From: Candidatus Methylomirabilales bacterium
GTDB lineage: Bacteria; Methylomirabilota; Methylomirabilia; Methylomirabilales; CSP1-5
DNA: 58,964 nt
Reading direction: 5' to 3'
NCBI GenBank assembly: GCA_046758505.1
Contig: JBHIAH010000010.1
Location: 1 to 58,964, forward strand
The notes under the pieces are model-generated. The model saw nothing but the letters and a program-made list of their open reading frames with translations. It was not told the origin of the DNA and did not search any database. The position numbers were made by a program, and so were the translations under genes. This document shows positions 10,957-48,768 of this stretch, one piece after another (position 1 is the first letter of the stretch; every line of letters starts with the position of its first letter).

Positions 10957-11259
10957 TCAGCCGACCACTGAAGCTCGGTAGACGTGGCGGCCATCGCTGC
11001 CAGCCGCCGCGACCGCTTCCATCAGGCCTTGGGGCTCGATCTGCTCCGGATCGTAATGCACCAGGGCCAGGGCACTAAACAGATCGATCTGCACCTGCAT
11101 GACCCCCTGGTGGGAGAGGAGGCTGTTTCGCACGCGCGTGACGCACGTCTGGCAGCCCATCCCGGTCACCCCGAGGACTGCCGTCTCCGCCCGGGCAAGC
11201 GCCTCTGGATCAACGGTCTTCTGTACAGGATCAACGTGGCAATTCCCTTCGTGTTGCAT
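10957..11259 (-). CDS. HMA-domain metal chaperone, copy 2
   Basis: GMGCQTC; identical to 6499-6801. Confidence 0.88.
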   Translation of the reverse strand: MQHEGNCHVDPVQKTVDPEALARAETAVLGVTGMGCQTCVTRVRNSLLSHQGVMQVQIDLFSALALVHYDPEQIEPQGLMEAVAAAGSDGRHVYRASVVG

Positions 11260-23028: not shown

Positions 23029-23691
23029 TCACGGGATGCTTTGAAGCTCGTCCTCGATGACGGTCCGGAATGTCGCGATTGGATGGGCCCCCACGACTTT
23101 CCGCCCATTGATGAAGAAGGTGGGAGTCCCATTGACACCTAAGAGTATACCAATTCCCGTTTCCCCTTCCACCTTTTCCGCATACTTCCCCGTGTCGAGA
23201 CACTGATCGAAAATTGCGCCGTCGAGGCCGAGATCGCGGGCGTACTGTTTGAGTCGATCATCTGCCAGGGAGAGGAAGCCTTTCGACGCAAAGAGCGTAT
23301 CGTGGTACGTCCAGAAGTTCCCCTGCTCCCGGGCGCACTCCGACGCCTGGGCCGCTTGTACCGATTGTGGGCCGAGGATCGCCAGGTGGCGGTAGACGAA
23401 CCGCACCTTGCCTGGCATGATGTACTCTTCGTCAAGGCGGGGGAGGGTCTGTTTCCAGAACCGCCAGCAGAAGGTGCACTGGAAGTCGGAGAATTCGATG
23501 ATGGTGACGGGGGCCTTCTCGGACCCCCTGGCGGGTCCCCTGGCCATCACAGCCAGGATCTCCGCGGCGCGCGGCGCCTGGGTGAAGCCGGTAGAGCTTG
23601 AGGCCAGCACCACCCCCAGAATCCCAAACAACACAAGGCGTCGGGATTTCCGACTCCCGTGCCTGGGCCGGGGATCTCCTTGGTTGCCCAT
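23029..23691 (-). CDS. DsbA-family protein
   Basis: EFSDFQCTFC, GVNGTPTFFING. Confidence 0.9.
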   Translation of the reverse strand: MGNQGDPRPRHGSRKSRRLVLFGILGVVLASSSTGFTQAPRAAEILAVMARGPARGSEKAPVTIIEFSDFQCTFCWRFWKQTLPRLDEEYIMPGKVRFVYRHLAILGPQSVQAAQASECAREQGNFWTYHDTLFASKGFLSLADDRLKQYARDLGLDGAIFDQCLDTGKYAEKVEGETGIGILLGVNGTPTFFINGRKVVGAHPIATFRTVIEDELQSIP

Positions 23692-23792
23692 ATCTGTTCC
23701 CCCGAGGAAAACGTTCGCGGAGCTCAATGGCTTCCGAATTCAGGACGCGTCGCCGGAGCCGCCCTTCATGTCCGATTGGCCTCGGTTGAAGC

Positions 23793-24536
23793 TCACAGCC
23801 GTTTCCACAGCCAGGCGGGCGTAAGGGTGATGAAGTAGCTATTCAGGATTGTCAAATATCCGGTGAAAAGGAGGATCCCGATCAGGACGAGGAAGAGGCC
23901 GCTGGAGATCTCCACCAGCCGCATATACGGGTGGAACCGCTGAAAAAACCGGCTGAAGCGGTCCACGGCCAGAGCGCTCAAGAAGAAGGGGACTCCCAGG
24001 CCGAGCGAATACACGGCCAAGAGGGTCACCCCCTTCCCTCCTGTCGCGGAGGATCCCGCCAGCGTCAGGATGGACCCCAGGATCGGCCCGATACAGGGAG
24101 TCCACCCGGCCCCGAAGGCCACCCCGACCAGGACCGACCCCAGATATCCCGCGGGGCGATTTTCAAATTGTAGCCGATGCTCGCGCATCAGAAACGGCAG
24201 CTTCAAGATTCCGGTGATATGCAATCCGAAAACGATGATGACGATTCCCCCGATCTTCCGGACGAGGGCGATCGAGCCGAGGAGGAGCTGTCCCAGCAGG
24301 GTGAAGGAGGCGCCCAGGGCGATGAAGACCACGGAAAAGCCCAGGATGAAAAGCGCGGCGTTGAGGAGGATGGCGCTTCGGACCACGGCTGTCCGGCCCG
24401 CTTTCATGTCCCCAAGGGACATGCCGGCCACGAAAGAAAGGTAGGACGGGACGAGAGGCAGCACGCACGGAGAGAGAAACGAAAAGAGCCCCGCTGTCAA
24501 GGCCACCACCGAGGTCACATCCACGGCTTGCGCCAT
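23793..24536 (-). CDS. ccdA: Cytochrome c biogenesis/disulfide transporter CcdA
   Basis: SFLSPCVLPLVP and GWTPCIGPILG. Confidence 0.93.
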   Translation of the reverse strand: MAQAVDVTSVVALTAGLFSFLSPCVLPLVPSYLSFVAGMSLGDMKAGRTAVVRSAILLNAALFILGFSVVFIALGASFTLLGQLLLGSIALVRKIGGIVIIVFGLHITGILKLPFLMREHRLQFENRPAGYLGSVLVGVAFGAGWTPCIGPILGSILTLAGSSATGGKGVTLLAVYSLGLGVPFFLSALAVDRFSRFFQRFHPYMRLVEISSGLFLVLIGILLFTGYLTILNSYFITLTPAWLWKRL

Positions 24537-24712
24537 CCTGCCTCTCCTTGGTCTGTGCTCAATACCCGCATTTTACCCTGTTTCGGTAGAAGCCCACAGG
24601 AAGAACCGCCCCTCTGCATTTCGGGCCGCGTCCCCCCACGGCTCGCTGGCTGAGGCTGCTTCCGGCCACGATGGGTGCGTCGAGTCCGTGGGTCACTGTG
24701 CGCGTCCCGACC

Positions 24713-25249
24713 TCATCGTAACAGGTCCTCGAGCATTTTGGTTGACTCGCCGTCGGTCCAGTCACGATAGCCGAGTTCTCGAAAGCGGATCACGCCATCT
24801 TTGTCCACGAGAAAACTTGCGGGGATGGCGAAGATCCGGAACTGGCCGAGGGTTTTCATGTCCGGATCCAGAAGGGCGGGGAAGGTAAGTTTGAACTGCT
24901 CCATGAAGTTTTTCACTATGCTTTTGGGGCCGGCATCAATGCTGACAGCCAGGATCTCGAACCCATCGCGATTATAGGCCTGGTAGGCCCGTTCCATCGT
25001 GGACATCTCCAGTCGGCACGGAGGGCACCAGGTGGCCCAGAAGTTGATGAAGACCGCCTTCTTGCCGCGGAAGTTTGAAAGCCGAACTGGTGTGCCCCGC
25101 AGATTTGGCAGCGTGAAATCCGGTGCTCGGTGTCCCACCGCCGGCCTTGGGTCTTGAGCCCCGGCCTCTGGTCCTGCGGCAGCCAAGAATAAGGAACTGC
25201 CGACCAGGACGGCCCCGAGTAAATACCACCGCGAATATCGATTCTGCAT
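24713..25249 (-). CDS. TlpA/ResA-family thiol-disulfide oxidoreductase
   Basis: INFWATWCPPC; close paralog of 5354-5896. Confidence 0.92.
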   Translation of the reverse strand: MQNRYSRWYLLGAVLVGSSLFLAAAGPEAGAQDPRPAVGHRAPDFTLPNLRGTPVRLSNFRGKKAVFINFWATWCPPCRLEMSTMERAYQAYNRDGFEILAVSIDAGPKSIVKNFMEQFKLTFPALLDPDMKTLGQFRIFAIPASFLVDKDGVIRFRELGYRDWTDGESTKMLEDLLR

Positions 25250-28140: not shown

Positions 28141-31100
28141 TTACCGTGGTCCGGTGGCCGGGGCATCCGTGGCCGACTCTGTCGAACCCCCGTGGGCCCC
28201 GCCGCGAACCGGCGTGGGTGCCAGCTCCAGGAATTCCCCCCGTTCCACGATCAGCTGGTGTTGCCAGGCCTCTTCGGGGTCCCAGCCCCACTTCAGGTAG
28301 AGGGTGGGAACCACGAGCATGTTGAGGAATGTCGAGGTGGCCAGGCCGCCGAGGATGACGTACGCCATGGGTCGCTCCAGCTCCTTGCCGGCGATGTCGC
28401 CGAAGAGGAGGGGGAGAAGGCCGAGCCCGGCCGCGGCAGCCGTCATCAGGATGGGGGCCAACCGCTCCATCGAGCCCTCGACGACTGTTGCCTCTCGGTC
28501 AAGTCCCTCGGCCCGGAGCTGGCGGTAGCGGCTCACCAGGAGGATCCCGTTCCGGGCAGCGATGCCGAAGACCCCGATGAGACCGATGATCGAGGGAATG
28601 CTCATGATTCTGTCCGTGAGGAAGATGGCTACTACCCCCCCGATGAGGGCAAGGGGGAGGTTGGCCATGACCAGCAACGCCGCCCTGGAAGAATTGAAGG
28701 TCTTGTAGAGGAGCAAAAAGATGGCCACAAGGGCCACCGCGCCGTAGTTCAGCAAGATCCGGGTGGCCTGCTGCTGGCTCTTGAACTGCCCGCCGTACTC
28801 GATAAAGTAACCAGGCGGCAGATCGACCCCCTCTTGGATCTTCTGCTGCGCCTCGGCAATGACGCTTCCCAGATCCCGCCCGGCCACGTTGGACTGGACG
28901 ACGATCCGTCGCTGGACCCGTTCCCGGTTGATGAAATACGGCCGGTTCTCGATGGCCACCTCGGCGACCTGGCTGAGCGGGACCCTTCGTCCCCCTGGCG
29001 CGTCAACCAGGACGTTCCGCATGGCCCGGACATCGCGCCGCGACGGCTCGTCGAACCAGAGGAAGAGGTCAAAGCTCTTCTGTCCCTCAATCACCCGGGA
29101 GATGATTTCGCCGTTGAACGCGATCTGTGCCGTCTCGAGAACATCTCCAGCATTGAGTCCTAAACGAGCGGCCCGGTCGCGCTTCACCTTGATTCGGACT
29201 TCCGGGACCCGGATCTGCTGCTCGAGCTGCAAGTCGGTGGTTCCTTTGATCCCGGCGAGGACAGCCTCCACTTGCTGCCCTTTCTCCAGCAGGCGGTCCA
29301 AGTCAGGGCCATAGATCTTGATCGCGATCTGCGCTCGGACTCCAGAGAGGACCTCATCAAGGCGGTGAGCGATGAACTGACCGAGGTTCACCGCCACCCC
29401 GGGAATCTTCTCTAGATCTTCTCGAATGAGGTGAATCAGCTCCTCCGGGTCTCGCTCGCCATAGTGGAGGAGAATGTCAAACTCGATGAAGTTGGGGGGC
29501 ATCGCATCCTCGTCCATCTCGGCCCGCCCGGCCCGCTGGGAGATCGAGGCCACCTCCGGGTATTTCCGAAGCATGGTGGTGATCCGATCGCCCAGACGCA
29601 TCGACTCCCGGAGCGACGTCCCGGGAAGGCTCGTCACCGCCAGGATGAAGTTCCCCTCGTGAAACTCCGGGAGAAAAGAGCGGCCGAGAAAGGGGATCAG
29701 GGCCACGCTGATCCCCAGTAAGACGATCGAAATGACGACCACGACGCGCGGATGCTGGAGCGCCGGCCGCAGGAGACGCTCGTATCCAGCCTTGAGGAGG
29801 CGGATGGTGGCACTCTCCCGCTCCGGCTCGGGGTGGCTTGCGCCTCTGGACTTCGTGAGAAGGAAAGCACACAGGACGGGGGTCAAGGTCACCGCAACAG
29901 CAAGGGAGGTGAGGAGGGAAGCAGCAAAGGCCAGCCCAAGGGGGGTGAGAATTCGCCCCTCCACCCCGCTCAGCAGAAAGATAGGACCAAAGACCACCAG
30001 GATGATCCAGGTGGCGTAAACCACCGAGTCCTTGATCTCGTGGGAGGCCAGGAAGATCACCTTGAGGGGATGGTCCGGTCTTGCCTTCGCCCGGTTTTCC
30101 ATGAGGCGGCGAAAGATGACCTCGACGTAAATGATAGCATTATCCACCACCACACCGATGGCGATCGCAAGCCCCCCTAATGTCATGGCATTGATCCCCA
30201 CACCGAAAGCCTTGAGGATCAGGATGCCTAGTAGGAGAGACAGGGGCATAGCGGTCAGCGTGATGACGGAGGCCCGGACGTTGAAGAGGAAGAAAACCAC
30301 CACGATGGTGACGACGACCGCGCCTTCGATGAGGGCCCGACGGAGGTTCTGGATCGATGACTCGATGAAGTTGGCCTGGCGGAAGACCTGGGCGTGCATC
30401 GCGATTCCCTGGGGGAGGGTCTGCCGGATGTCCTCGAGGGCGCGCTCCACCTCTTGGGTGACGGTCAGGGTGTCGGCCCCAAACAGCTTGGAGATGGTGC
30501 CGATGACCGCCGGTTTACCCATATAGGCCGCATCACCCCGGGGGAACTCCGGGCCGGACTTCACGTTCGCCACGCGGTCCAGGGTGATCGGAATACCGCC
30601 GTGCTCGGCCACGACCGTCTTTTTCAGTTCCTCGAGGGAGGCGATCCGTCCGGCGCCGGTGACCACATACTCCTCTCCCGGGACCACGAGGAAGCCCCCG
30701 GGAACATTTACATTGGCTTGCTTCACCGCCTCCACGACATCATGGACGGTGACGTTGTACCGCAGAAGCTCCTCAGAGGAGAGGAGGACCTGATACTGCT
30801 TCGGGCCAGGGCCCATGCAGACCACCGACGCGACCCCTCGGATGGCCAGGATCCGATTCCGGATGTCCCAATCGCATAACGTCCGAACGTCGAGCGGAGA
30901 AACAGTCTCACTCTGCAGGGCGAACTTGACCAGCCAGCTCACCGCCGAGGTGATGGGGAGCATGACCGGGGCCTCCGTTCCCGGGGGGAATTGCTCTCGC
31001 ACCTCCTGAAGCCGTTCATTCACGAGCTGCCGGGCCGTGTAAATGTCGGTCCCCAACTCAAAGACGATAATGACGGTAGAGAGTCCAGCCGACGTCTTGG

Positions 31101-31350
31101 ATCGAACCACATCCACACCGGGGGTGCCGTTCACTGCTGCCTCGATGGGGAACGTGATAAGGGTTTCCACATCTTCCGGGCTCAGCCCGGGGGCCTGAGT
31201 CTGGATGACGACCTGTGGTGGTGCAAATTCGGGCAGGACATCCAGGGTCATCTGCCGGACGACAAAGACGCCGACGAACAGGAGGATGACATAGGCCACC
31301 ACCGTGAGCATCCGGTTCCGGAGGGACCATTTCGTGATCCAGTCAAACAT
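28141..31350 (-). CDS. CusA/CzcA-family heavy-metal efflux RND permease
   Basis: 1069 aa; DVLPEF, NAMTLGGLAIAIGVVVDNAI, ERLAPILMTA. Confidence 0.95.
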   Translation of the reverse strand: MFDWITKWSLRNRMLTVVAYVILLFVGVFVVRQMTLDVLPEFAPPQVVIQTQAPGLSPEDVETLITFPIEAAVNGTPGVDVVRSKTSAGLSTVIIVFELGTDIYTARQLVNERLQEVREQFPPGTEAPVMLPITSAVSWLVKFALQSETVSPLDVRTLCDWDIRNRILAIRGVASVVCMGPGPKQYQVLLSSEELLRYNVTVHDVVEAVKQANVNVPGGFLVVPGEEYVVTGAGRIASLEELKKTVVAEHGGIPITLDRVANVKSGPEFPRGDAAYMGKPAVIGTISKLFGADTLTVTQEVERALEDIRQTLPQGIAMHAQVFRQANFIESSIQNLRRALIEGAVVVTIVVVFFLFNVRASVITLTAMPLSLLLGILILKAFGVGINAMTLGGLAIAIGVVVDNAIIYVEVIFRRLMENRAKARPDHPLKVIFLASHEIKDSVVYATWIILVVFGPIFLLSGVEGRILTPLGLAFAASLLTSLAVAVTLTPVLCAFLLTKSRGASHPEPERESATIRLLKAGYERLLRPALQHPRVVVVISIVLLGISVALIPFLGRSFLPEFHEGNFILAVTSLPGTSLRESMRLGDRITTMLRKYPEVASISQRAGRAEMDEDAMPPNFIEFDILLHYGERDPEELIHLIREDLEKIPGVAVNLGQFIAHRLDEVLSGVRAQIAIKIYGPDLDRLLEKGQQVEAVLAGIKGTTDLQLEQQIRVPEVRIKVKRDRAARLGLNAGDVLETAQIAFNGEIISRVIEGQKSFDLFLWFDEPSRRDVRAMRNVLVDAPGGRRVPLSQVAEVAIENRPYFINRERVQRRIVVQSNVAGRDLGSVIAEAQQKIQEGVDLPPGYFIEYGGQFKSQQQATRILLNYGAVALVAIFLLLYKTFNSSRAALLVMANLPLALIGGVVAIFLTDRIMSIPSIIGLIGVFGIAARNGILLVSRYRQLRAEGLDREATVVEGSMERLAPILMTAAAAGLGLLPLLFGDIAGKELERPMAYVILGGLATSTFLNMLVVPTLYLKWGWDPEEAWQHQLIVERGEFLELAPTPVRGGAHGGSTESATDAPATGPR

Positions 31351-35433: not shown

Positions 35434-35940
35434 TTATCTTTGGCGCTGCCGTTGCGCGGCCTTGGGCCCCGTTCGTCGGATGGCAAATCGAATCTCCTGG
35501 GCAGAGATAAAGCCCTCTACGGGGGGAGCCTCGCAATTGCAGGCTTCACCCCGAAGGGGACGGCATGAGGTGTCGAGCTGGTTACGCGCTACCTCCAGTT
35601 CTTCCCTTAGAAGTAATAGTTCCCGGACCTTCTCGTTGACGAATCGAAGATAGTCAGAGATGGCCTCTTGGACCCGCGGACGCAGGTTCCCGCAGTCCTC
35701 CCATTCGGCCAGAGGGAGAAGATCCCGGATGCGGGCCAAGGGGAGGCCCACGTCTTTCGCCCGTTTAACGAAAAGTAATCGGCCGATATCGGCTTCCTCA
35801 TAAAGCCGGTACCCGGACGCACTCCGCCGGGGTTGGGGCAGGAGGCCCAGGCGCTCATAGTACCGAACTGCCTTGCGGGTGACCCGACCCCGCTTGGCCA
35901 ACTCTCCGATACGAAGGAAACCGTCCTTTGGCATGAACAT
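35434..35940 (-). CDS. MerR-family metal-responsive regulator
   Basis: LRIGELAK...VRYYERLGLL...GYRLY; Cys in DCG and C...CNC. Confidence 0.92.
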   Translation of the reverse strand: MFMPKDGFLRIGELAKRGRVTRKAVRYYERLGLLPQPRRSASGYRLYEEADIGRLLFVKRAKDVGLPLARIRDLLPLAEWEDCGNLRPRVQEAISDYLRFVNEKVRELLLLREELEVARNQLDTSCRPLRGEACNCEAPPVEGFISAQEIRFAIRRTGPKAAQRQRQR

Positions 35941-35959: not shown

Positions 35960-36955
35960 TTAATTATATATTAATGTCTGCGTGGCCGCGTATTGGTATT
36001 TTATCTTGATCTGCAACAGTCCGAAGATTCCGGCGACCGTCAACCCGGAAAAGATGGCGGCCAGCAGGACGATGCCACTGAGCAGCAGCGCGACGCGCCA
36101 TCCCACCATGGTGCGATAATACCAGATGCGTTGCGGTGCGGCCGCAGCGGTAAACCAAAAGGCCACCAGCCCGGCCAGGGCCATTCCGCCCCTCCAGAGA
36201 TACGTCCCGATCAGGAGGTTTGCAATGGGGGGAGCAAAGGAGAGGAGGCCGATCCCGACACCCATCAGGGCATTCAGGAACTGCCCCTGCCACCCACCTC
36301 CGGTGAGCGTGACGGGAAAGATCCAGGAGGGCTTGATCGCCACCGCCGCCAAAAAGCCTGCGGCGACAAAGCCGTAAAGCAGCCGCCACCCGCTCGCCGC
36401 CACTTCTCGCCCGATGAGCCGAAGAGCCAGTTCTCCCCATCGAAGAGGCAATGATCCCCTGGTTTGACTCGGCGGGATGGCTAGGTCGGTCAGATCCGCC
36501 TCTGGCGAGGGGATTGCGGAGACCTCGCTTCGCCTAAGCTGACTTCCCAAGGGGATAAATAGGCCGAGGAAGACGATTACCCCTATCGCGTAGGCGAGCA
36601 GGAATTCCTTTCCAAGCAAGGGCGGGAGCAGGAAAACATAGAACAACAAATAGTGGGCGCCCCCGATAAATGCCAGGAGATCCCGCCACCGGTCAGCGGC
36701 GAGGAAGGTCCGGGCAATGCGGGTGAAGGCGGCGTGGGAGGTGCACCCCGCCCCAACCACAAGGGGGGTCAGAATGCCTCGGAGCCCACCCGATGAGCCG
36801 CCTTGGAGAGCCCGGAGCCTGGCCGGACGAAAAGCGAGGCTGTGGACCGCCACTGCTCCGAGGAAGACCCAAATAAGGATTCCCCGGGCAAAGACCACCA
36901 CCAGGTAGTAAAAGGTCACCCAGGCCCACTTCAGACTTTCCCCCAAAAGGGCCAC
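35960..36955 (-). CDS. Predicted permease (DUF318/ArsP-like)
   Basis: Multi-TM protein, GAGC motif, paralog architecture with 38778-39806. Confidence 0.65.
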   Translation of the reverse strand: MALLGESLKWAWVTFYYLVVVFARGILIWVFLGAVAVHSLAFRPARLRALQGGSSGGLRGILTPLVVGAGCTSHAAFTRIARTFLAADRWRDLLAFIGGAHYLLFYVFLLPPLLGKEFLLAYAIGVIVFLGLFIPLGSQLRRSEVSAIPSPEADLTDLAIPPSQTRGSLPLRWGELALRLIGREVAASGWRLLYGFVAAGFLAAVAIKPSWIFPVTLTGGGWQGQFLNALMGVGIGLLSFAPPIANLLIGTYLWRGGMALAGLVAFWFTAAAAPQRIWYYRTMVGWRVALLLSGIVLLAAIFSGLTVAGIFGLLQIKIKYQYAATQTLIYN

Positions 36956-37018
36956 TGCTTTTTCTCCGATGGCTAGTTACACTCCAACCCGTTCCACCAA
37001 ATTCCAGCGGGGAGTCTC

Positions 37019-37552
37019 CTACGGTTGCCCCATCCTATGCCGACTTACCAGAAGGCTCGCGAGCTCGCCTGCCGCCAGGTCTCGGTACTGGACCTCTCCC
37101 ACCAGGGTGACCTTGGCATCTGTTGCCGCCGCGTCCTTCTTTAATTCCGCCAGGGCAGATCCAGATCGGAGGAGGAAGGGCTGCTCGGTCCCTGCAACCA
37201 CAAAGCGCAGCTGTCCCTCTCCGGTGATGCTCGCGGTCCCCACGGCCTTGATCTCTAAGGCATCGAGGGTGATTCCGCTGTCCCTCACCTTGCGCTCGAT
37301 CAGCTGGGGATCGAGGGTGAAGGTCGAGCGCGGGATGATCTGGATCCAGCCTCGGTTCAGATCGACTTTTACGTTGGCTACGCCATCCAGGCGCAGTAGG
37401 GTCTGTTGGACCCCGTACGCTCAGAAATTTCAGGTCATGCCATGGACGCGCAGCGTGACCTCCTGGATCTCCGCCCTGACCGGGGAAGTGAGCAGGCCGA
37501 ATCCCAGCAACAGCGCCCCCAGGCTTCTTTGAAAGATCCTTTTGCCCCTCAT
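37019..37552 (-). CDS. Secreted HMA-domain protein, predicted double selenoprotein (GMT-U-NF-U-AYG)
   Basis: ATG 37552 with GGAGGGAG RBS, signal peptide; TGA at 37432-37430 and 37423-37421 in the CxxC positions; frame continues to 177 aa. Confidence 0.85.
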
Positions 37553-37578
37553 ATTCTCCCTCCTTTGCTGCCTTTCAT

Positions 37579-38466
37579 TTAAAAGAACTGGTAGCTCACG
37601 CTGAAGATAACGCGTAAGTCGAACTCCGCCTGCTCGCCGTTGAGGTCTTGGGCCACAGGGATCTGTCCCGCCAGGGAGAGGTTCAACTGGGGGATTGGCC
37701 GGTAGAAGAGAAAAGGGTCGGCAAAGAGGACAGTGCCTCCCGAGTTTCGTTGCCCCACCCCGTTCAGCTCACTACGCCCGGCGAATTCTGCGGTCAGCCC
37801 GAGACCGATTCCCAGCTCCGGCCCGGGAAAGGGGGCCTGGTAAATCCGGTGGCTAAAGCTCACGTCGAGGACCAAGAGATCCCCGGCTTCGAAATCCTGT
37901 GCCCCCTCGGTGTTGAGCTTGTAAAAGAGGCTGCCGTTCAGGGCCGAGCGGCCCAGGATGGTGGTGTTGGCCAAACCGAAGATCCCATTCACTGCTCCCA
38001 GGCCGGGCTGGAGCGCCGGCGGCAAACGTTTTCCTCCATCTTTCTGATCCGTGGCCCCGGTAGGGAGTTCCACCCCCCCAAAGACCGAGAACTGCACGCT
38101 GGTCCGAAAGGCATCGTGCTTGAAGAAACGGTATTTCCCCAGGAGGATCAGGTCCCCCGGTCCGAAGGCTTCCTCGACCCGCCCTGAGCGCTCCCGGCGC
38201 TTGTAGACTACCGGGATGGTCCCTCCGATCACCAGATCGTGGAGGGGGGAGTAACTAAAGGAGGTGACGTTTCTCAACCCATCCGTCTCTTGGCCCGCTC
38301 CGCTCCGGCTGGAGAAGATGGTGGCGTTGCTCACGATCTTGCCCACCTCAAAGATGGTCACGCCGGTTCGGGCATCGACTCCCTGGGCCCAACCGTTGAC
38401 GGGTACGGAGAGGGTTGCTCCCGCAGTAGCGACCAAGAGCGCCCAAACCGCTTCTCGCCTTGCCAT
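37579..38466 (-). CDS. Outer-membrane beta-barrel 'transporter' (SphA/MetA-pathway-like)
   Basis: Signal peptide, GPGDLIL-x-GKY, ELPTG, LQPGLG, terminal SYQFF. Confidence 0.8.
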   Translation of the reverse strand: MARREAVWALLVATAGATLSVPVNGWAQGVDARTGVTIFEVGKIVSNATIFSSRSGAGQETDGLRNVTSFSYSPLHDLVIGGTIPVVYKRRERSGRVEEAFGPGDLILLGKYRFFKHDAFRTSVQFSVFGGVELPTGATDQKDGGKRLPPALQPGLGAVNGIFGLANTTILGRSALNGSLFYKLNTEGAQDFEAGDLLVLDVSFSHRIYQAPFPGPELGIGLGLTAEFAGRSELNGVGQRNSGGTVLFADPFLFYRPIPQLNLSLAGQIPVAQDLNGEQAEFDLRVIFSVSYQFF

Positions 38467-38499
38467 CCCTCCCTCCAAGGCCTCTGGATTCCCAGGTCC

Positions 38500-38777: not shown

Positions 38778-39806
38778 TTAGAAGCCCAAGGCGGGCAAGA
38801 TTTTGCTGATCAGCTTAAGCGGGGGGAGGTCGGGGCGAAAACCGAACAGCGCGTAGATCCAGGTGGAGCCGAGGCCGCCGAGGATAGCGGCAGCGTACAG
38901 GAGGCCGACCAGGATCAGCCCCTGCTTCCCCCCAAAGGTCCTGAAATAGATTCGCACGTCCCGGGGGTGGATCGCGCTGGCCAGGCAGAAACTGATGATC
39001 CCGGGATAGGCAAGGCCATCGGTCTTGAACAGAGCATGGATCACCGGGAGGTTTCCCACGGGGGAGAGGAACATGATCGCAGAGAAGGCAGGACTGGCCA
39101 GGGCATTGAGCAGGTCAGAGGCAGGAGTTTTACGGCCCATGATGTCCGCGAAGATGATCCACCAGGACTCTAGCCCGGCCGCAAAGATGAGCCCTCCCAG
39201 GATGATCCCTACGACAAGCGTCGGTGTGAATCGCCGTACCTCGTGCCCGATGAATTTCAGCATAGCCCACCATCCCTCAAGGGAGAGGAGGAGGGCGCGC
39301 CAGCAAGGGAAGCTGGCCAGATCGAGGACGAATGTATTGCTCTCCGCCTTTCCCATGGCCGGGGTGGCAAGCACTGGTGGTCGAAGCCAGTTGAGACCCA
39401 GGGCAACAACGCCGATCATCACCAGTGCCCCGAGCACCTGCCCCGTGGCAAATTCTGCGCCCAGCGACAGGGCAAAGATCGCCCAGAAGTGGATCGTCAT
39501 GTTCCGGCTGGCAATCAGGTAGGCGAAGGCCGTGGCCGGGGAGCGGCCACGCTTGAGCAGCTCCCATGCGGCCTGCCGGCTGATCTCGCGGTCCGCACTC
39601 CCCACGATGCCCGCCTTCATAGCCCGCCAGATGCTTGGCCCTGCCGTTGATGGACTTTCGAGAAGTCTGTCCCATGTGGAGCGGCGGTACCGCAGGGTCA
39701 GGAGGGCGGCTACGAGAAAGCCCGGAACCCACACCGTGTAGAAGAGGGTCATGAACTTAAACAACTCGATCGTGAAAAACCAGGCCTGTTGCCAAAAAAG
39801 CGCCAT
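38778..39806 (-). CDS. Predicted permease (DUF318/ArsP-like)
   Basis: Multi-TM protein; AFAYLIASRN, SPVGNLP, GIISF motifs. Confidence 0.7.
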   Translation of the reverse strand: MALFWQQAWFFTIELFKFMTLFYTVWVPGFLVAALLTLRYRRSTWDRLLESPSTAGPSIWRAMKAGIVGSADREISRQAAWELLKRGRSPATAFAYLIASRNMTIHFWAIFALSLGAEFATGQVLGALVMIGVVALGLNWLRPPVLATPAMGKAESNTFVLDLASFPCWRALLLSLEGWWAMLKFIGHEVRRFTPTLVVGIILGGLIFAAGLESWWIIFADIMGRKTPASDLLNALASPAFSAIMFLSPVGNLPVIHALFKTDGLAYPGIISFCLASAIHPRDVRIYFRTFGGKQGLILVGLLYAAAILGGLGSTWIYALFGFRPDLPPLKLISKILPALGF

Positions 39807-40796: not shown

Positions 40797-41306
40797 TTAA
40801 CGGATCTGAAACTGCTCGATCCGGGCCGCCTCCTCCCCTTCCGGGATCTGCCCTACAATAAAGATGGACTCGCCCTCCTGGCCGGCGGCCTTCTTCAGCG
40901 CCTCCAGCTTCTCATCACTGACAAGGGGGATGACCTGGTCCGTCCCCTTCACCTTGAAGGCCGGGCTCCCGTCTCGGGTGGTAAGCTGTCCCACCGCCTC
41001 GAACCGGATCCAGGTCGGGGTAAACCCCGAATCAACGACGGCCTTCCGGAGCTCCTCGACCTTCAGAGGCTGTCCCTCCTTGAGTTGGATGTCCGCCCGT
41101 GCTTTCTTGAGACTTGCCTTCACTTTGTCCACGCCATCCAGGCGTGAGAGGCCCTTTTGGGCCCCATACGCTCAGATGGGTCATATCATCCCGTCGATAC
41201 CCATCTGGACCGAGGAGATCTGTGCCTGGGCCAGTGGGGGATCGGCCAGCGTGGCGAAGAGGCTCATTGCAACGAGCAGGCTGAGAAATACGGCGAGCTT
41301 TCGCAT
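40797..41306 (-). CDS. Secreted HMA-domain protein, predicted double selenoprotein (GMI-U-PI-U-AYG)
   Basis: ATG 41306 with AGGAG RBS, signal peptide; TGA at 41183-41181 and 41174-41172; paralog of 37019-37552. Confidence 0.85.
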
Positions 41307-41321: not shown

Positions 41322-42206
41322 CTAAAAGAGGTATCGGAATCCAAACAGCACGGTATAGTCGGGTTCCAGTCGGCCGCTCGGGAAGTCGTTGACGATCGGG
41401 ATCTGGACCCCTGTCTCGAAGAGCAGGTTCCCGGTGACGATGTACTGGATTCCGGGGGAAATAAAGAGCACGGTCCCGCCGGTGTTGATGTCTTTTCCGT
41501 CGATCGCGTTGTCGCCGGAGGTCCGGCCGTTGAACTCGATGCCCAGATTGAGCTGGGCGGGGGGCGTCGGCCATTCGGGGTACGTCTGATAGGCCAGGTA
41601 GAGGTCGTACAGCAAGACGTTCCCGAACTGAAAGTCCTTCGCCTCGGAGTTGATCTTGCCCCGAAGCGCCGCCTCGATGCTGTACCAGCTTCGGGTGGTA
41701 CCGGCAGCGATCCCCACGATGCCGTCCACGCCGCCCGAGCCGAGCTGGAGTGCGGGGGCTGCCGTGAGCCCGGGTCCCTTACTGGTGGAGCCCGAAGGGA
41801 GTTCGAGGCCGCCGATGACGGCCAGTTGGTCGCGGCCGAAGGGGAGATCTCGCCGATAGAAGGTGTACTTGCCGAAGAGAGTGATATCCCCGATGCCGCT
41901 GGCGTCGAAGGTCCCTGTGGGGGTTTCCAAGTGCTTGTTGACATATGGGACAGTCAGATTCAGCGTCGCGTTGGTCGCCAGGGCGTAGGAAAAGATGGCC
42001 GGGGCCGTCCAGACCTTGAGTTCCTTGCCTCCGCCTTCGAGCCTCTGGAATTGCCCGAAGGACCGCACCGCCGTCCCCAGAAAGAACTGAGTCCGGGGGC
42101 TTGCGCCGAAGATGGGGGCTGCCAGCACGCGGGCCGGCAGAAGGCCAACCCCGATAATCAATAGACCCATTTTCCAGCCCGTTCGGATCGCTCTCCGCTG
42201 CTGCAT
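41322..42206 (-). CDS. Outer-membrane beta-barrel 'transporter' (SphA/MetA-pathway-like)
   Basis: GIGDITLFGKY, ELPSG, LQLGSG, terminal FRYLF; paralog of 37579-38466. Confidence 0.8.
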   Translation of the reverse strand: MQQRRAIRTGWKMGLLIIGVGLLPARVLAAPIFGASPRTQFFLGTAVRSFGQFQRLEGGGKELKVWTAPAIFSYALATNATLNLTVPYVNKHLETPTGTFDASGIGDITLFGKYTFYRRDLPFGRDQLAVIGGLELPSGSTSKGPGLTAAPALQLGSGGVDGIVGIAAGTTRSWYSIEAALRGKINSEAKDFQFGNVLLYDLYLAYQTYPEWPTPPAQLNLGIEFNGRTSGDNAIDGKDINTGGTVLFISPGIQYIVTGNLLFETGVQIPIVNDFPSGRLEPDYTVLFGFRYLF

Positions 42207-42263
42207 AGATTCCCTCCGTAAGCTCATCACGGACGTGGTGGATAGCATTTAGAACATTCCCTC

Positions 42264-42462: not shown

Positions 42463-44868
42463 CTATTGCTCTCCACAGACGTGGCCGATCTCTCCAAGGG
42501 ACTTGCAGATCTCGGCCCGCTCCATCTGGCCATCCCGAAGGGTGACGGTGATGCGTTTATCCTTGACGTCCCCGTCTACCGCCTGGATGTCTGGCAGCTT
42601 CTCGAGCTTTTGGCGGATGCCGGTGAGGCACCCCTCGCAGTGTATCGTGGGAACCTTGAGTGTGAGCTTCTCCATGGTCACCTCCTCTTTGGTCTCGCGC
42701 CGTGGCAGCAGGCGGCCGCCGAAGGAGTTCAGGAGGACGGTCGTGACACTCGCCGCCATGGCAACCATGGCCATGACCGGGTGGACGAGACCCGTGACGG
42801 CCGCCGGGACGCCGATGCCGTTGAAGGCAAAGGCGAGGGAGACGTTCTGCACCGTCTTGCGGAAACTGCTCTTGCCGATGTAGTAGGCATCCACCACTCC
42901 CCCCAGCCGGTCCCCCACCAGGATGACGTCGGCGGACTCGATCGCAATGTCGGTTCCGGCCCCGACCGCGATCCCGACGTCGGCCTGCATGAGCGCGGGG
43001 GCGTCATTGATGCCATCTCCGACCATGGCCACACGGTAGCCTTGCTGCTGAAGCTTTCGCACCTGTTCGGCCTTCTGGCCAGGGAGGACTTCCGCAATGA
43101 CATCCGTGATGCCGACCTGGCCGGCCACGGCCTTTGCGGTTCGCCGGTTATCGCCGGTGAGCATCGCCGGTTCCAGGCCGGCGCCCTTCATCCGGGCCAC
43201 GGCGTGGGCGGCGTCGTCCTTGAGGGTGTCAGCGATGGCGATCAACCCCGCGAGCTGGCCCGTCTCGGCCGCGGCCACGACGGTTCGCCCCTGTTGTTCC
43301 ATCACCTCTACGCGCTCCTGGACCTGGGTGAGGTCTATGCCTTCGTCCGAGAGGAAGCGAGGGCTTCCGACCAGCACGGCTCTGTTATCAATCGTGGCCC
43401 TGATCCCCCGCCCCGGGATAGCCTGGAAGTCCAGGGCATCAAGAGGCACACGCCCATCCGCTGCCTCCGCGATGGCCCTGGCTAGGGGGTGCTCCGAGGG
43501 GCTCTCGGCGGCCGCGGCAAGCGCCAGCACCTCCTCCTCCATGTAATGGCCCGTCGGCACCACCTCGATCACCTGGGGCTTGCCCCTGGTGATGGTCCCC
43601 GTCTTATCCAGCACGACCTTCCTCACATCTTTGAAGACCTGGAAGGCCTCGCCCGAGCGCATCAGGATGCCCTGCTGGGCAGCCATGCCGCCGCCCCGGA
43701 TCATGGCGAGTGGGGTAGCCATCCCGAGGGCGCAGGGGTAGCCCATCACCAGCACCGCCAAGGTGGCAAAGATGGCCCGGGTGAAGTTCGGTTCTCCGAT
43801 GAGTAGCCAGGCGCCCAGAGTCCAGATCACGAATGCTGTCCCCGCTGCGACGAGTACCCCGGGGACAAACCACAGCAGCACGCGTTCCACCAGCTGCATG
43901 ATGCCCGGCTTGAGCGCCCGGGCTTCCTGGATGGAGCGGGCCACCTGCTCGAGGAAGCTTTCCTCTCCCACCTTGGTGACGCGCACGAGCAAGCTGCCCG
44001 TCTGGTTCATGGAGCCGCCGATGACCTCATCTCCGACGGCCTTCTCGACGGGAATGGACTCGCCCGTCACCAGGCTCTGATCCACCCCCGACAGTCCCTC
44101 CACCACCACGCCGTCCACCGGAAAGCTCTCGCCGGGGCGAATCCGCACGAGGTCCCCCGGTCGCACCTCCTCCGCGGGGAGTTCCTCTTCTCTCCCGTCC
44201 CGGACGACGCGGGCCGTCGGAGGCTGGAGGTCCATCAGTTTCTTGATGGCCTGCGAGCTCTTCGTGCGGACCAGCAGAGAGACGTATGCCGAGAGAATGT
44301 GATACGCGGTAATGAAGACAGCGGCCCCCATGAAGTCGGCCATGGGCCAGGGCTGCGTGAAGAACCCGACTGCGCCGCCGGCCAGGCCACCGAAGGCGCC
44401 GAACTCCATCAGCACGTGCTGGTTCAGGATCCCCCGTTTGAGCGAGGCCCACGCCATCTTGAGGATGGGCCAGCCTACGCCGAAGACCATCCCGAGCGCG
44501 AGGCCCAGCATCACCCACTTGAACAAGGGCTGCTGGACGCCCAGCCACATCGCGCTCATGAAGCCGAGGGAGACGAGCATGAAGCCGGCCGCCACCAGGA
44601 GCTGGTTCCGATGCCGACGCAGATCGGCCTCTTCCTCTTCAAAGGTCCGGACCTTCTTGGGGTCGCGCACCGTGTATCCCAGGCTTCGCAGGGTATCCCA
44701 GAGCTCTGTGGGGGTTACCTGCTCCGGGTCGTAGTGGACCAGCGCTTCCTCATGGGAGAGGCTCACGCCGACCTCCCCCACGCCGTCCATTTGCGTCAAG
44801 GCCTTGCGGATGCTCTCTACGCAGAAGGAGCACTGCATCCCGCCGATCTTTATTTGCAGCTTCTCCAT
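42463..44868 (-). CDS. Heavy-metal P1B-type ATPase with YPC motif and N- and C-terminal HMA domains
   Basis: GMQCSFC, TGES, GYPCALGMATP, DKTGT, SEHPL, GDGIND, C-terminal IHCEGC. Confidence 0.93.
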   Translation of the reverse strand: MEKLQIKIGGMQCSFCVESIRKALTQMDGVGEVGVSLSHEEALVHYDPEQVTPTELWDTLRSLGYTVRDPKKVRTFEEEEADLRRHRNQLLVAAGFMLVSLGFMSAMWLGVQQPLFKWVMLGLALGMVFGVGWPILKMAWASLKRGILNQHVLMEFGAFGGLAGGAVGFFTQPWPMADFMGAAVFITAYHILSAYVSLLVRTKSSQAIKKLMDLQPPTARVVRDGREEELPAEEVRPGDLVRIRPGESFPVDGVVVEGLSGVDQSLVTGESIPVEKAVGDEVIGGSMNQTGSLLVRVTKVGEESFLEQVARSIQEARALKPGIMQLVERVLLWFVPGVLVAAGTAFVIWTLGAWLLIGEPNFTRAIFATLAVLVMGYPCALGMATPLAMIRGGGMAAQQGILMRSGEAFQVFKDVRKVVLDKTGTITRGKPQVIEVVPTGHYMEEEVLALAAAAESPSEHPLARAIAEAADGRVPLDALDFQAIPGRGIRATIDNRAVLVGSPRFLSDEGIDLTQVQERVEVMEQQGRTVVAAAETGQLAGLIAIADTLKDDAAHAVARMKGAGLEPAMLTGDNRRTAKAVAGQVGITDVIAEVLPGQKAEQVRKLQQQGYRVAMVGDGINDAPALMQADVGIAVGAGTDIAIESADVILVGDRLGGVVDAYYIGKSSFRKTVQNVSLAFAFNGIGVPAAVTGLVHPVMAMVAMAASVTTVLLNSFGGRLLPRRETKEEVTMEKLTLKVPTIHCEGCLTGIRQKLEKLPDIQAVDGDVKDKRITVTLRDGQMERAEICKSLGEIGHVCGEQ

Positions 44869-45024: not shown

Positions 45025-45056
45025 AGGCTAAACCTTCCAGTTGAGGAGGGACTCAA
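45025..45056 (-). promoter_or_regulatory. MerR-type promoter, distal copy overlapping the merR stop codon
   Basis: TTGAGT, 20 bp containing GGAAGGT, TAGCCT; near duplicate of 44892-44923. Confidence 0.6.
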
Positions 45057-45511
45057 GAACTTTTTTGGCGGTAGCGGGAGGGGAGAGAAAGGGGCTGGAT
45101 TTCTGCGCGTTCGATGTGGGGGCAGACCGAGCCGGCGCGGCCCCGCGTCCGGGGTCGGCTGGCCGATTTTCGTGCCAAACCGCTCAGCTCGTCGCGGAGG
45201 AGCGTGAGGTCTCTAATCTGGCGGGAGAGGGTGTGCACCCGTTCGGTGAGCAGGGCGTGCACGTGGGGACAGGGCAGATCCCCGCGTTGGCGCAGGGCGA
45301 TGATCTCACGGATCTCGGTCAGGGTGAAGCCGAGAGTCTTCGCCTTCTGGATAAATCGGAGGAGTTCAAGGGTCTGCGGAGTATAGAGACGGTATCGACT
45401 CTCGCTGCGCAGAGGCGGCGGCAGTAACCCCAGGCTCTCGTAATAGCGGATCGTCCGCGGATTGAGCCCGAGTTGCTTCGCAACCTTGCCGATAAATAAT
45501 GGTTGCCTCAT
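45053..45511 (-). CDS. MerR-family heavy-metal-responsive regulator
   Basis: IGKVAK...TIRYYESLGLL...YRLY...GFTLTEI; PCPHV and VCPHIE. Confidence 0.93.
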   Translation of the reverse strand: MRQPLFIGKVAKQLGLNPRTIRYYESLGLLPPPLRSESRYRLYTPQTLELLRFIQKAKTLGFTLTEIREIIALRQRGDLPCPHVHALLTERVHTLSRQIRDLTLLRDELSGLARKSASRPRTRGRAGSVCPHIERAEIQPLSLPSRYRQKSS

Positions 45512-45711: not shown

Positions 45712-46089
45712 TTACTCTGGCCTCACACAACGTCCTTCATGGTCAAGCATGCCCTCATGAGGTATGGTACCTTCTAAACGTTTAATGTAAAAATCAGGGT
45801 TCTTCTGGAACACTTCTGCGCAATATGGACAACCGCAAAAGTGCACTTCCTGCCCGGCAATCAACCTGACGGCCCGCTCGAGTGGCTTTTCACCCAAGCA
45901 GCTTGGGCATACAATCAGATCATCTATTTTCTTGAGGTATTTCTCAGGATCGGTGGTGAACAGGTCAACGCACCCCTGGCAACAGAAATGGTATTCTTCA
46001 CTGTTATAGCGGTAAGTAGCCGCCTTATCTTTGCTGACGCCTAGCCTGACCAGGGAACAACCACATGTCGGGCAAATGAGTGTTTTCAT
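45712..46089 (-). CDS. Tandem YHS/TRASH Cys-rich metal-binding protein
   Basis: CPTCGC...HFCCQGC...DPEKY and CPSC...HFCGCPYC...NPDFY; GGAGG RBS. Confidence 0.85.
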   Translation of the reverse strand: MKTLICPTCGCSLVRLGVSKDKAATYRYNSEEYHFCCQGCVDLFTTDPEKYLKKIDDLIVCPSCLGEKPLERAVRLIAGQEVHFCGCPYCAEVFQKNPDFYIKRLEGTIPHEGMLDHEGRCVRPE

Positions 46090-47334: not shown

Positions 47335-48681
47335 TCACGTGGTGAGGAGATTGGTCAGGTCGTGCAGCTGTTTCCGGAATTTGTCGTCTCTCGCCATCAG
47401 TTCCCGGATCTTGGAACAGGCGTGGATCACCGTCGAGTGATCCTTTCCGCCGAACTCTGCCCCGATGTCCGGGAGGGAGGCGTTCGTGTTGGTTCGGCAC
47501 AGGTACATCGCCACCTGGCGGGGTAAGACGATAGACTTGTGCCGGCTTTTCGACAGGATTTCCTTTTCGTTGAGGCGGTAAAAGTCTGCAACCACTTCCA
47601 GGATGTGGGGCATGGTAATCGCCCGGTCCCCGTCCACTAACTCCCTCAGGACCTCGCGGGCCAAATCGAGCGTGATCGGCTGATTCGTCAGGGAGGCGTA
47701 CGCGACGATCCGGACGAGGTGGCCTTCGAGCTCCCGGACGTTGGATTTCACGTTCGTGGCGATGAAAAGGGATACCTCATCCGGGATCTGCACACCCTCC
47801 GCCTGTGCCTTTTTCCGGAGGATGGCCGCTTTGGTCTCCAGATCGGGAGGCTGGATGTCGGCGATCAGGCCCCACTCGAACCGAGAGCGGAGCCGTTCTT
47901 CCAGGCCCGGGATCTCCTTGGGTATGCTGTCGCTCGTCAGGACGATCTGTTTCGAGGCATTGTACAGGTCGTTAAAGGTGTGAAAAAACTCTTCCTGGGT
48001 CCGTTCCTTTCCGGCGATGAACTGGATGTCGTCGATGAGGAGGACATCCACGCTCCGATAGCGATTTCGGAATTCGATAGTCGCATCGAAGCGGATCGCG
48101 TTGATCAGATCGTTGGTGAACTTTTCCGACGAGATGTAGGAAATCCGGACCAGACTGTCTCGCCCCAGAACGAGATGGCCGACCGCGTGGAGGAGATGGG
48201 TTTTTCCGAGGCCGACGCCGCCGTAGATAAACAGGGGATTGTACACCTTGGAGATTTGCTCGGCGACCGCCAGCGATGCCGCATGGGCAAGCTGGTTTCC
48301 CGCCCCCACGACAAAGCTGTCGAACGTGTATTTGGGGTTAAGGGAGGGTGCAGGGGTGGTGCGGCGGGCGGCCCGCTTCGGCGGGGCCTTCGGGGGCGGG
48401 GGCGGGGGGCACGGGTCGGCATCGGGGATGACGAGCTCGATCTCCACCCGGGTGAACAGGAGATCCTCCAGGGCGGACCGGAGGAGTTCAAGGTAGTGTT
48501 CTTCAAACCACTCCTTGAAGAAGCGATTGGGCAGCACGACCTGGAGATGATTGCCGTGTATGGTTCCCAGGGTGAGGGGGCGGAACCAGGTTGTGAAACT
48601 ATGGTGAATCAGTTGGCGCTGGATGTTGGAAAGGGCTGCCTGCCATACGTCGTGGGACACGGAAGAAGATTGTCCGGTCAT
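47335..48681 (-). CDS. dnaA: Chromosomal replication initiator DnaA
   Basis: LNPKYTF, YNPLFIYGGVGLGKTHL, LLIDDIQF, TQEEFFHTFN, GGKDHSTVIHA; AGGAGG RBS. Confidence 0.97.
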   Translation of the reverse strand: MTGQSSSVSHDVWQAALSNIQRQLIHHSFTTWFRPLTLGTIHGNHLQVVLPNRFFKEWFEEHYLELLRSALEDLLFTRVEIELVIPDADPCPPPPPPKAPPKRAARRTTPAPSLNPKYTFDSFVVGAGNQLAHAASLAVAEQISKVYNPLFIYGGVGLGKTHLLHAVGHLVLGRDSLVRISYISSEKFTNDLINAIRFDATIEFRNRYRSVDVLLIDDIQFIAGKERTQEEFFHTFNDLYNASKQIVLTSDSIPKEIPGLEERLRSRFEWGLIADIQPPDLETKAAILRKKAQAEGVQIPDEVSLFIATNVKSNVRELEGHLVRIVAYASLTNQPITLDLAREVLRELVDGDRAITMPHILEVVADFYRLNEKEILSKSRHKSIVLPRQVAMYLCRTNTNASLPDIGAEFGGKDHSTVIHACSKIRELMARDDKFRKQLHDLTNLLTT

Positions 48682-48768
48682 CCCATCAGCCTCCTGCAAC
48701 CCTGCTCGACTATTGTTTTAGAAGAAAGTACGTACCGCTAGGTTCAGCTTGCCGCAAGGGGAGGAAAG

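Follow-up and report, generated by a model that had tools for sequence, protein, structure and literature searches.

A predicted secreted HMA protein with a UxxU selenocysteine site, encoded in a metal-resistance island of a Methylomirabilales bacterium

We analysed a DNA stretch of 58,964 nt from a Candidatus Methylomirabilales bacterium (contig JBHIAH010000010.1 of assembly GCA_046758505.1, positions 1 to 58,964; "the window" below) and focused on a minus-strand gene at 37019-37552, designated HMA-Se 1, in which two in-frame TGA codons take the place of the two cysteine (Cys) codons in the metal-binding motif of a heavy-metal-associated (HMA) domain. The sequence evidence makes it likely that this is a genuine selenoprotein gene of the HMA kind with a UxxU site, U standing for selenocysteine (Sec). 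Their placement is not due to chance: the two TGA codons coincide precisely with the two Cys columns of the HMA motif, and relatives retain them.

Gene and Predicted Protein

HMA-Se 1 opens with an ATG at 37552-37550 and closes with a TAG at 37021-37019, and the only stop codons within this frame are the TGA at codons 41 and 44 (TGA1 and TGA2). The predicted product starts with a basic and hydrophobic N-terminus that ends in SPVRA and continues as EIQEVTLRVHGMT-U-NF-U-AYGVQQTLLRLDGV, the immediate surroundings of the site reading RVHGMT-U-NF-U-AYGVQQTLLRLDGV. All relatives compared have a similar N-terminus, and an AGGAG-type site was present in ten of the ten family genes examined for ribosome-binding sites. 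The list of open reading frames (ORFs) made with genetic code table 11 contains only the last 89 aa (37019..37288), as the original prediction, made from the letters of the sequence alone, had remarked. Its alternative reading of 177 aa from the ATG at 37552, with a signal peptide, a UxxU HMA domain and a second domain, agrees with the frame, with the match to the Pfam HMA family (PF00403; 35.6 bits against a gathering cut-off of 24.8, E 1.3e-08, profile positions 1-42 of 62 aligned) and with an AlphaFold 2 (AF2) model. The segment GMT-U-NF-U (residues 38-44) lies between beta-1 and alpha-1 of the HMA domain, with U in both Cys columns.

The AF2 model, built on a 36-row alignment, had a predicted local distance difference test score (pLDDT) of 90.0 and a predicted template modelling score (pTM) of 0.81. 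It places a helix at residues 4-21, within the putative signal peptide, followed by the ferredoxin-like beta-alpha-beta-beta-alpha-beta order of an HMA domain (E29-37, H42-53, E58-64, E69-74, H82-91, E95-109). This part matched 1fvq_A (CCC2a) with Z 12.2 and a root mean square deviation of 1.6 over 72 residues, and CsoZ with Z 11.2, while template modelling (TM) scores by target were 0.8-0.9 for CopZ, Atx1 and MerP. The C-terminal domain, which is rich in beta strands and specific to the family, continues on from the final HMA strand. No Pfam model covers it in HMA-Se 1 or in four Cys-form relatives, and its profile gave only chance-level matches (E >= 0.04) to PDB sequences. Folded alone, it reached a pLDDT of 63.1, too low for a fold search; Foldseek and a wide structural search with the full model returned lists filled by HMA matches.

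Selenocysteine Machinery of the Genome

Reading of UGA as Sec depends on a set of genes that we searched for in the genome (96.8% complete). Profile searches found selA (607 bits), selB (333 bits) and selD (407 bits), the selD gene itself having one in-frame TGA. In the whole genome ARAGORN and the Rfam tRNA-Sec model identified a single tRNA-Sec(UCA) with discriminator G73; the Rfam model gave one match above its cut-off, and its weaker matches turned out to be ordinary tRNAs when checked in ARAGORN. With selA, selB, selC and selD all in the genome, the organism has the gene set of SelB-dependent Sec insertion. ARAGORN also reported a single ordinary tRNA-Cys(GCA); a further Sec-like tRNA able to insert Cys was not detected in this genome. 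A genome-wide reassignment of TGA can be ruled out, since TGA is the commonest ordinary stop and terminates 12 of 25 window genes.

Nine of the 18 AhpC-TSA matches in the genome have one in-frame TGA, which makes this a selenoprotein-rich genome. Passages of PMC13188914 describe a Methylomirabilota metagenome-assembled genome (MAG) as likewise rich in selenoproteins. In eight AhpC-TSA-type genes and selD (contigs C1, C7, C14, C79, C88, C114 and C6) the single in-frame TGA is followed by hairpins, whose loops start 14-33 nt past the UGA.

Conservation of the TGA Codons in a Two-Domain Family

A word-indexed protein search with the recoded HMA-Se 1 sequence returned no relatives at near lengths. 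The two-domain family that it missed was recovered by an exhaustive profile search. Its matches included numerous Cys-form proteins, 165-185 aa long, that share the two-domain layout and carry the motif DG[LM]xCPFCAYG, and also stubs of about 110 aa that begin just past the motif. These stubs are what gene callers make of Sec-form genes. When an Atlas was asked with a Cys-form relative, the automatic names were "Heavy-metal-associated domain-containing protein" and "hypothetical protein". Standard gene calling reduces the family to a stub of 90-110 aa, and the NCBIfam model NF041115 does not reach it; as a result, annotation falls short in the metal-resistance islands of uncultured bacteria of the Methylomirabilota type and their relatives. 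We also noted a protein with Trp at both metal positions (P0026, GME-W-HL-W-ALG), which is probably a UxxU gene translated with TGA as Trp by the annotator.

Two-domain relatives with in-frame TGA codons were present among 41 related genomes searched. The window itself holds one, the UxxU paralog HMA-Se 2, which the original prediction had not noticed and which is 86% identical to a gene (L037) from a MAG contig with Nitrospinota in its title. Among 251 genomes of the phylum, 12 gave a match at E<=1e-8, in 17 places (11 with two TGA, five with one and one with none), and all five single-TGA genes are CxxU. Public genomes contributed 18 loci (6 UxxU, 1 CxxU, 11 CxxC), the Sec forms coming from MAGs titled Binatia, Nitrospinota, Methylomirabilota/-ales and Tectomicrobia. 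From metagenomes, 80 loci were kept of 134 relatives; these gave seven further UxxU genes and 71 instances of the CxxC motif, besides a single UxxC that looks unrelated and one spurious match. Over the segment compared, one locus (L020, from G021, which carries an unpublished flag) has the same letters as the public record underlying L038, and nothing is claimed on it alone. On contig C11, an HMA match containing a single TGA was rejected as a Sec form, that TGA being a plain stop codon.

Including HMA-Se 1, this gives 25 distinct Sec-form genes: 20 UxxU, five CxxU and no UxxC. TGA stands at the second position in all 25 and at the first in 20, the other five having TGC there, and both positions align with the CxxC of the Cys-form relatives. 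The Sec-form genes and the CxxC relatives aligned with them have Cys or TGA at both sites, the point on which the original prediction had let its UxxU reading depend. In a tree of 36 rows all ten Sec forms fall on one side, within a group of 16 rows. Since Sec forms are exclusively CxxU or UxxU, this distribution suggests that Sec entered the second position first (CxxC to CxxU to UxxU) and that TGA1 was added later.

Two side observations follow. In the tree, three proteins (P0010, P0030 and P0040) are nested within the Sec forms; their CxxC motif is lost, and a C-terminal Cys has been gained. On a metagenome contig (L067) an HMA-like frame reads FGMD-U-AV-C-AH, which may represent the UxxC form of another HMA family.

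A Conserved RNA Element Downstream of TGA2

In every Sec-form gene TGA2 is followed by two adjacent hairpins, hairpin 1 and hairpin 2 (Table 1), and the Cys-form relatives are without them. The 48 nt past TGA2 fold with −17.3 to −25.8 kcal/mol and into the same two hairpins in 15 Sec forms, versus −6.1 to −14.1 kcal/mol in 13 Cys forms, from which the hairpins are absent even where the peptide is similar. For the 71 metagenomic CxxC instances the mean fold energy was −10.4 kcal/mol. Over the 25 distinct sequences, 90.8% of the cells are paired versus 40-56% with slid partners, and changes on both sides were seen at five pairs across the element. The covariation score of 0.181 compares with a shuffle mean of 0.062 and was reached by none of 500 shuffles, a significance that is overstated by such controls because the sequences are kin. 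Within the arms, amino acids with four or six synonymous codons are held to a single one (Gly GGG in 25/25, Ala GCC in 18/18, Leu CTG in 25/25, Gly GGC in 21/21), while other Leu and Gly columns use 3-6 codons. HMA-Se 1 keeps both stems by compensatory changes of its own, with U-A at pair 23/31 and U-A at pair 38/54.

The two hairpins differ in their loops. Hairpin 1 is paired in 93.3% of the cells of the 25 sequences, and its loop, CAACA in HMA-Se 1 and CAAAA in most Sec forms, has no conserved G. The loop of hairpin 2 is UGGAN (UGGAU in HMA-Se 1), with UGGA invariant in 25 of 25, and four of its seven pairs show changes on both sides. The original prediction had described a hairpin GCGTA..GGGGTC-CAACA-GACCCT..TGCGC and had missed hairpin 2 at 37378-37396. 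The inner part, GGGGTC-CAACA-GACCCT, does exist at 37398-37414, and the outer arms can pair; nevertheless, a single extended hairpin with the GCGTA/TGCGC outer stem had −15.2 kcal/mol, versus −21.1 kcal/mol for the two tandem hairpins, and its outer stem is not conserved, so that we rejected it as the main structure.

For bacterial selenocysteine insertion sequences (SECIS) the legend of Figure 2 in PMC13188914 gives a loop of 3-9 nt, an upper stem of 4-16 bp, a minimum free energy of at most −7.5 kcal/mol, a G at loop position 1 or 2 that is usually followed by G or U, and a spacing of 16-37 nt. Measured against this legend, hairpin 2 has a suitable loop (5 nt), stem (7 bp), energy (−11.1 kcal/mol) and loop G, whereas the loop of hairpin 1 (CAACA, mostly CAAAA) fails the rule on the loop G. 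Hairpin 2, rather than the hairpin described at first, appears to be the best SECIS candidate. Hairpin 1 is probably spacer-like and no private SECIS for TGA1, because its loop is without a conserved G and because CxxU genes, which are without TGA1, keep it. That these genes retain both hairpins also speaks against one dedicated hairpin for each UGA. Hairpin 2 resembles hairpins of other selenoprotein genes in the genome, where simple enumeration found a 9-bp hairpin with loop GUG at +33 nt from the UGA of selD, a loop UGGAG at +28 in a Prx-like gene, and loops at +14 to +18 in other selenoprotein genes.

The spacing presents a difficulty for the reading of both UGA as Sec. The loop of hairpin 2 starts 31 nt from TGA2, inside the range of 16-37 nt in the legend cited above, and 40 nt from TGA1, which is outside this range and also beyond the 14-33 nt seen in this genome. 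Hairpin 1, at a suitable 21 nt from TGA1, is without a loop G in most members. Decoding of TGA1 is unexplained by the SECIS consensus spacing. How one SECIS serves two UGA codons, as the original prediction had asked, is a legitimate question; part of a 2026 paper (PMC13582414) raises it for UXXU hydrogenases, asking whether one downstream SECIS serves both. The series of CxxC, CxxU and UxxU forms with a short conserved recoding element makes the present family well suited to the question of how two UGA three codons apart are decoded.

It could be argued that one or both UGA are not read as Sec at all, either because a tRNA-ReC-type tRNA that depends on SelB inserts Cys or because near-cognate read-through occurs, so that the mature site would be CxxU, UxxC or CxxC. 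The position of TGA1 outside the consensus spacing would fit, and a section of PMC13582414 reports tRNA-ReC-like genes in about 56% of the genomes with UXXU hydrogenases and leaves UXXU decoding open. However, the ARAGORN scan of the whole genome gave the one tRNA-Sec(UCA) with G73 and the ordinary tRNA-Cys(GCA), with no further Sec-like tRNA, the weaker Rfam candidates being ordinary tRNAs, and 20 of 25 distinct genes retain TGA1 even though TGC or TGT would serve for Cys. We therefore regard this alternative as very improbable. For Sec insertion at both codons we propose that both UGA are recoded by SelB and tRNA-Sec, with SelB bound to hairpin 2. The recoding element would lie within the coding sequence and consist of the 17-nt spacer hairpin and then the 19-nt hairpin with the invariant UGGA loop, and the first UGA would be a later addition that uses the same element as the second.

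Selection and State of HMA-Se 1

In nine close pairs of the family the ratio of nonsynonymous to synonymous substitution rates (dN/dS) past TGA2 was 0.13-0.43, and by this measure the family frame past the TGA codons is under purifying selection. In this comparison the start of L040 was over-extended, which leaves its aligned part untouched. Regarding the pseudogene decay that the original prediction had considered, this answers for the family; the comparisons of HMA-Se 1 itself, all four of them, were saturated (dN 0.80-0.90, dS 1.0-1.6). The ratios thus speak for the family and the paralog, not for HMA-Se 1 itself, and the constraint on HMA-Se 1 rests on its open frame, conserved residues, confident fold and maintained RNA element, because its dN/dS is saturated. 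Further observations on this copy count against the reading as a functional gene: it is lone and very divergent, with a best identity of 38% to any relative and a long tree branch (1.7), and a scan of metagenome contigs for close relatives of HMA-Se 1 alone gave no match.

Considering these observations, HMA-Se 1 alone might be a decaying paralog, in which case the family would be real and the gene at 40797-41306 the working one. To the long branch, the low identity and the uninformative dN/dS one may add that no close ortholog was found in the 251 phylum genomes or the metagenome contigs, and that its permease partner is also the more divergent of the two in the window. Decay is nevertheless quite improbable in view of an open frame of 177 codons with stops at the two Sec positions only, a good ribosome-binding site, an intact GM-U-xx-U-xYG motif with 21 of 21 A1-invariant columns kept (a count that holds by construction), both hairpins maintained by compensatory changes specific to this gene, a pLDDT of 90 and a complete three-gene module. 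That the gene is a pseudogene or its TGA codons sequencing or assembly errors is scarcely credible. Table 11 does break the frame and leaves 89 aa in the ORF list, but genomes and contigs assembled independently show the same two TGA, purifying selection acts on the family, and the RNA element is conserved. In addition, the contigs of four runs (X1-X4) show 0 differences over 36950-37650; these runs belong to one study, possibly the source of the DNA, and are not independent. The sequencing runs listed include none of RNA.

The Sec machinery, the conservation of the TGA codons, the purifying selection in close pairs and the co-varying RNA element support the proposal, already made in the original prediction, that both metal ligands of HMA-Se 1 are Sec.

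Gene Neighbourhood and Possible Function

HMA-Se 1 lies in a metal-resistance island, the window carrying two P1B ATPases, a CusA/CzcA-type RND (resistance-nodulation-division) pump with an OEP protein, two MerR-family regulators and a YHS protein. It is part of a three-gene module, in which the gene for the Sec-HMA protein stands between those for a presumed outer-membrane protein and an ArsP-like permease, and the window contains two copies of this module (Table 1), with 28% identity over 211 aa between their permeases. Searches with tblastn for the module proteins on 22 loci found the same neighbours, with or without a MerR regulator and an ATPase, beside Sec and Cys forms. The module is present in MAGs titled Methylomirabilota, Nitrospinota, Binatia, Tectomicrobia, Gemmatimonadota, Gammaproteobacteria and Balneolaceae.

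Table 1. Positions of HMA-Se 1, its elements and the neighbouring genes in the window.
Feature	Position	Strand	Remarks
HMA-Se 1 gene	37019..37552	−	177 codons + TAG stop; predicted secreted two-domain HMA protein with UxxU site
Ribosome-binding site AGGAGG	37559..37564	−	6 nt 5′ of the HMA-Se 1 ATG
Putative signal peptide, residues 1-27 (MRGKRIFQRSLGALLLGFGLLTSPVRA)	37472..37552	−	role suggested by composition
TGA1, codon 41	37430..37432	−	first ligand of the GMxCxxC motif, presumably read as Sec
TGA2, codon 44	37421..37423	−	second ligand, presumably read as Sec
HMA domain, residues ~29-102	37247..37468	−	Pfam, AF2 model, structural matches
C-terminal domain, residues ~103-177	37022..37246	−	beta-beta-beta-alpha-beta-beta in AF2 model; no named family
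Hairpin 1	37398..37414	−	GGGGUC-CAACA-GACCCU, 6 bp, −8.1 kcal/mol; loop start +12 nt from TGA2, +21 nt from TGA1
Hairpin 2	37378..37396	−	CUGCGCC-UGGAU-GGCGUAG, 7 bp, −11.1 kcal/mol; loop start +31 nt from TGA2, +40 nt from TGA1
Paralog HMA-Se 2	40797-41306	−	169 codons, GMI-U-PI-U-AYG, TGA at 41183-41181 and 41174-41172, same two hairpins
Presumed outer-membrane beta-barrel, upstream gene	37579..38478	−	299 aa, ends SYQFF; outer-membrane assignment presumed; synteny
Weak ArsP_1-like permease, downstream gene	35960..36955	−	331 aa; PF03773 E 1.4e-4, below cut-off
MerR-family metal regulator	35434..35940	−	Cys ~83, 126, 134, 136; family match
Presumed outer-membrane protein, twin in module 2	41322..42248	−	308 aa; 32% identity to the 37579..38478 gene; synteny
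ArsP_1 family permease, module 2	38778..39806	−	342 aa; PF03773 E 1.9e-20, 73.7 bits
Heavy-metal P1B-type ATPase, upstream of module 2	42463..44868	−	TIGR01525, 565.8 bits
Second MerR-family regulator	45053..45511	−	family match

A role in transport, as a periplasmic carrier of soft metal, is the function that we somewhat favour for HMA-Se 1; its export, the metal that it handles and the direction of transport are inferred. The product would be exported by its signal peptide of the Sec (secretion) type, and its two selenolates would bind a soft metal, for example Hg(II), Cd(II), Cu(I) or Ag(I). The carrier would pass the metal between the presumed outer-membrane channel encoded upstream and the ArsP-like inner-membrane permease encoded downstream, under MerR-type control. 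In an oxidising compartment a pair of selenolates would capture metal faster and hold it more tightly than thiols.

The neighbourhood also holds points that count against such a carrier. The presumed outer-membrane protein is without a match in Pfam, NCBIfam and PDB sequences, the permease directly downstream of HMA-Se 1 is a weak ArsP_1 match below the cut-off, and neither merA nor merT was found among the 35 ORFs of 14.7-52.9 kb that were scanned against Pfam. A search for the module permease in the PDB likewise gave no match. The regulator at 35434-35940 has a Cys near 83 and three C-terminal Cys, which we take to be a pattern typical of MerR sensors of divalent soft metals and use as a lead only.

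The UxxU site could instead be a redox centre, a diselenide/selenol couple in a periplasmic oxidoreductase built on an HMA scaffold. According to parts of two reviews (PMC9312934, PMC13188914), the majority of prokaryotic selenoproteins have redox functions and U/CxxC/U motifs, and the window contains genes of the DsbD, TlpA and DsbA types at a distance of 12 kb. However, fold and motif of HMA-Se 1 are those of a metallochaperone, with no thioredoxin fold, the genes conserved around it encode no redox partners but metal regulators, metal ATPases and a permease, and Cys-form relatives have the classic metal motif GMxCPFCAYG, all of which renders a redox role improbable. The genes in question, encoding a DsbA-like protein, a DsbD/CcdA-type transmembrane protein and an AhpC/TlpA-like thioredoxin, stand in a row at 23029-25249 (−); their products could provide the periplasm with reducing power and keep a Sec/Cys metal site there reduced.

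Returning to the metal carrier, we consider it possible, with considerable doubt, that the outer-membrane protein, the Sec-HMA protein and the ArsP-like permease constitute an undescribed trans-envelope shuttle for soft metal with a bis-selenolate carrier, and that both UGA, 9 nt apart, are decoded from the single SelB-binding hairpin. Hairpin 1 would then be a collapsible spacer, which is folded while the ribosome is on UGA1, so that the effective distance is shortened, and melted when it is on UGA2. If true, the collapsible spacer would be a new way of extending the reach of a bacterial SECIS. The three-gene module, which has no named family for its outer-membrane protein or C-terminal domain, may represent an undescribed route of periplasmic metal handling. 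Within the family, metal sites made of thiolates and of selenolates can be compared directly on a single small fold that is well understood.

Other genes of the window are mentioned here for completeness. A YHS-domain protein is encoded at 45712-46089 (−), adjoining the second MerR regulator; YHS proteins are listed among the selenoprotein families in sections of two reviews (PMC9312934, PMC13188914). The dnaA gene (47335-48699, −) lies directly beside the metal island, which may therefore be located near the chromosomal origin. Two copies of a Cys-form HMA gene at 6541-6738 (−) and 10999-11196 (−) have translations that are identical over about 130 residues, which indicates that a segment of the window was duplicated.

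Comparison with Known Systems

UxxU HMA selenoproteins have already been catalogued; the two-domain family with its gene neighbourhood, of which HMA-Se 1 is, judging by its sequence, very probably a real gene, has not. Two Sec three codons apart are rare, as the original prediction had stated, but they are not new in an HMA protein: the UxxU form is curated as NCBIfam NF041115 ("UxxU_metal_bind", metal-binding (seleno)protein) and listed in passages of two reviews (PMC9312934, PMC13188914). Full-text literature searches returned no description of a secreted two-domain UxxU/CxxU HMA family, which paper supplements and selenoprotein databases could list. NF041115 proteins share with HMA-Se 1 the HMA domain, Sec at both ligand positions and the metal-resistance context. 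They differ in several respects, export, architecture, RNA element and genetic context among them: against the cut-off of 95 bits HMA-Se 1 scored 36.7, HMA-Se 2 40.3 and another two-domain member 49.7 bits, and the model has 74 positions, whereas HMA-Se 1 has 177 aa with an extra second folded domain (~103-177). The family of HMA-Se 1 moreover includes CxxU variants. A member of the NF041115 kind occurs in the same genus (L142, 571-927 (+) of G012:C183), where a lipoprotein-like single-domain UxxU HMA protein with 96.3 bits is encoded directly upstream of the three-gene module; its RNA has three small hairpins, in contrast to the two tandem hairpins of HMA-Se 1.

UXXU-type Group 4 [NiFeSe] hydrogenases resemble HMA-Se 1 in having two UGA three codons apart, and a SECIS core common to CXXU and UXXU forms is described in part of PMC13582414. 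They are, however, unrelated cytoplasmic or membrane enzymes, and tRNA-ReC-like genes, of which none was found in the present genome, are frequent there according to the same part of that paper.

Among proteins with Cys ligands, MerP (TIGR02052; PDB 1afi, 1osd) is likewise an exported single HMA fold with a GMxCxxC-type site and has an inner-membrane transporter and MerR as partners. The structural match has Z 7.7 to 1afi and TM 0.80 to 1osd, whereas HMA-Se 1 scores 36.5 bits against the TIGR02052 cut-off of 92.55 and differs by its ArsP_1-like permease and presumed outer-membrane protein as partners, its predicted Sec ligands and its extra domain. The HMA domain is matched best, in sequence and in fold, by CopZ/Atx1 proteins (NF033795, NF033794; PDB 6ff2, 1cc7), with 42.5 bits and TM 0.90 to 6ff2_A. 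The bit score is below the cut-off of 91, and CopZ is cytoplasmic and has one domain, unlike HMA-Se 1 with its putative signal peptide, second domain and predicted Sec ligands.

CusF is the periplasmic Cu(I)/Ag(I) chaperone of CusCFBA and is encoded with envelope transport genes. The CusA/CzcA-type RND pump of the window (28141-31350) belongs to a gene cluster separate from that of HMA-Se 1. Fold and ligands of CusF and HMA-Se 1 are unrelated. The likeness would be a functional analogy only, between one small periplasmic carrier of soft metals and another that is presumed.

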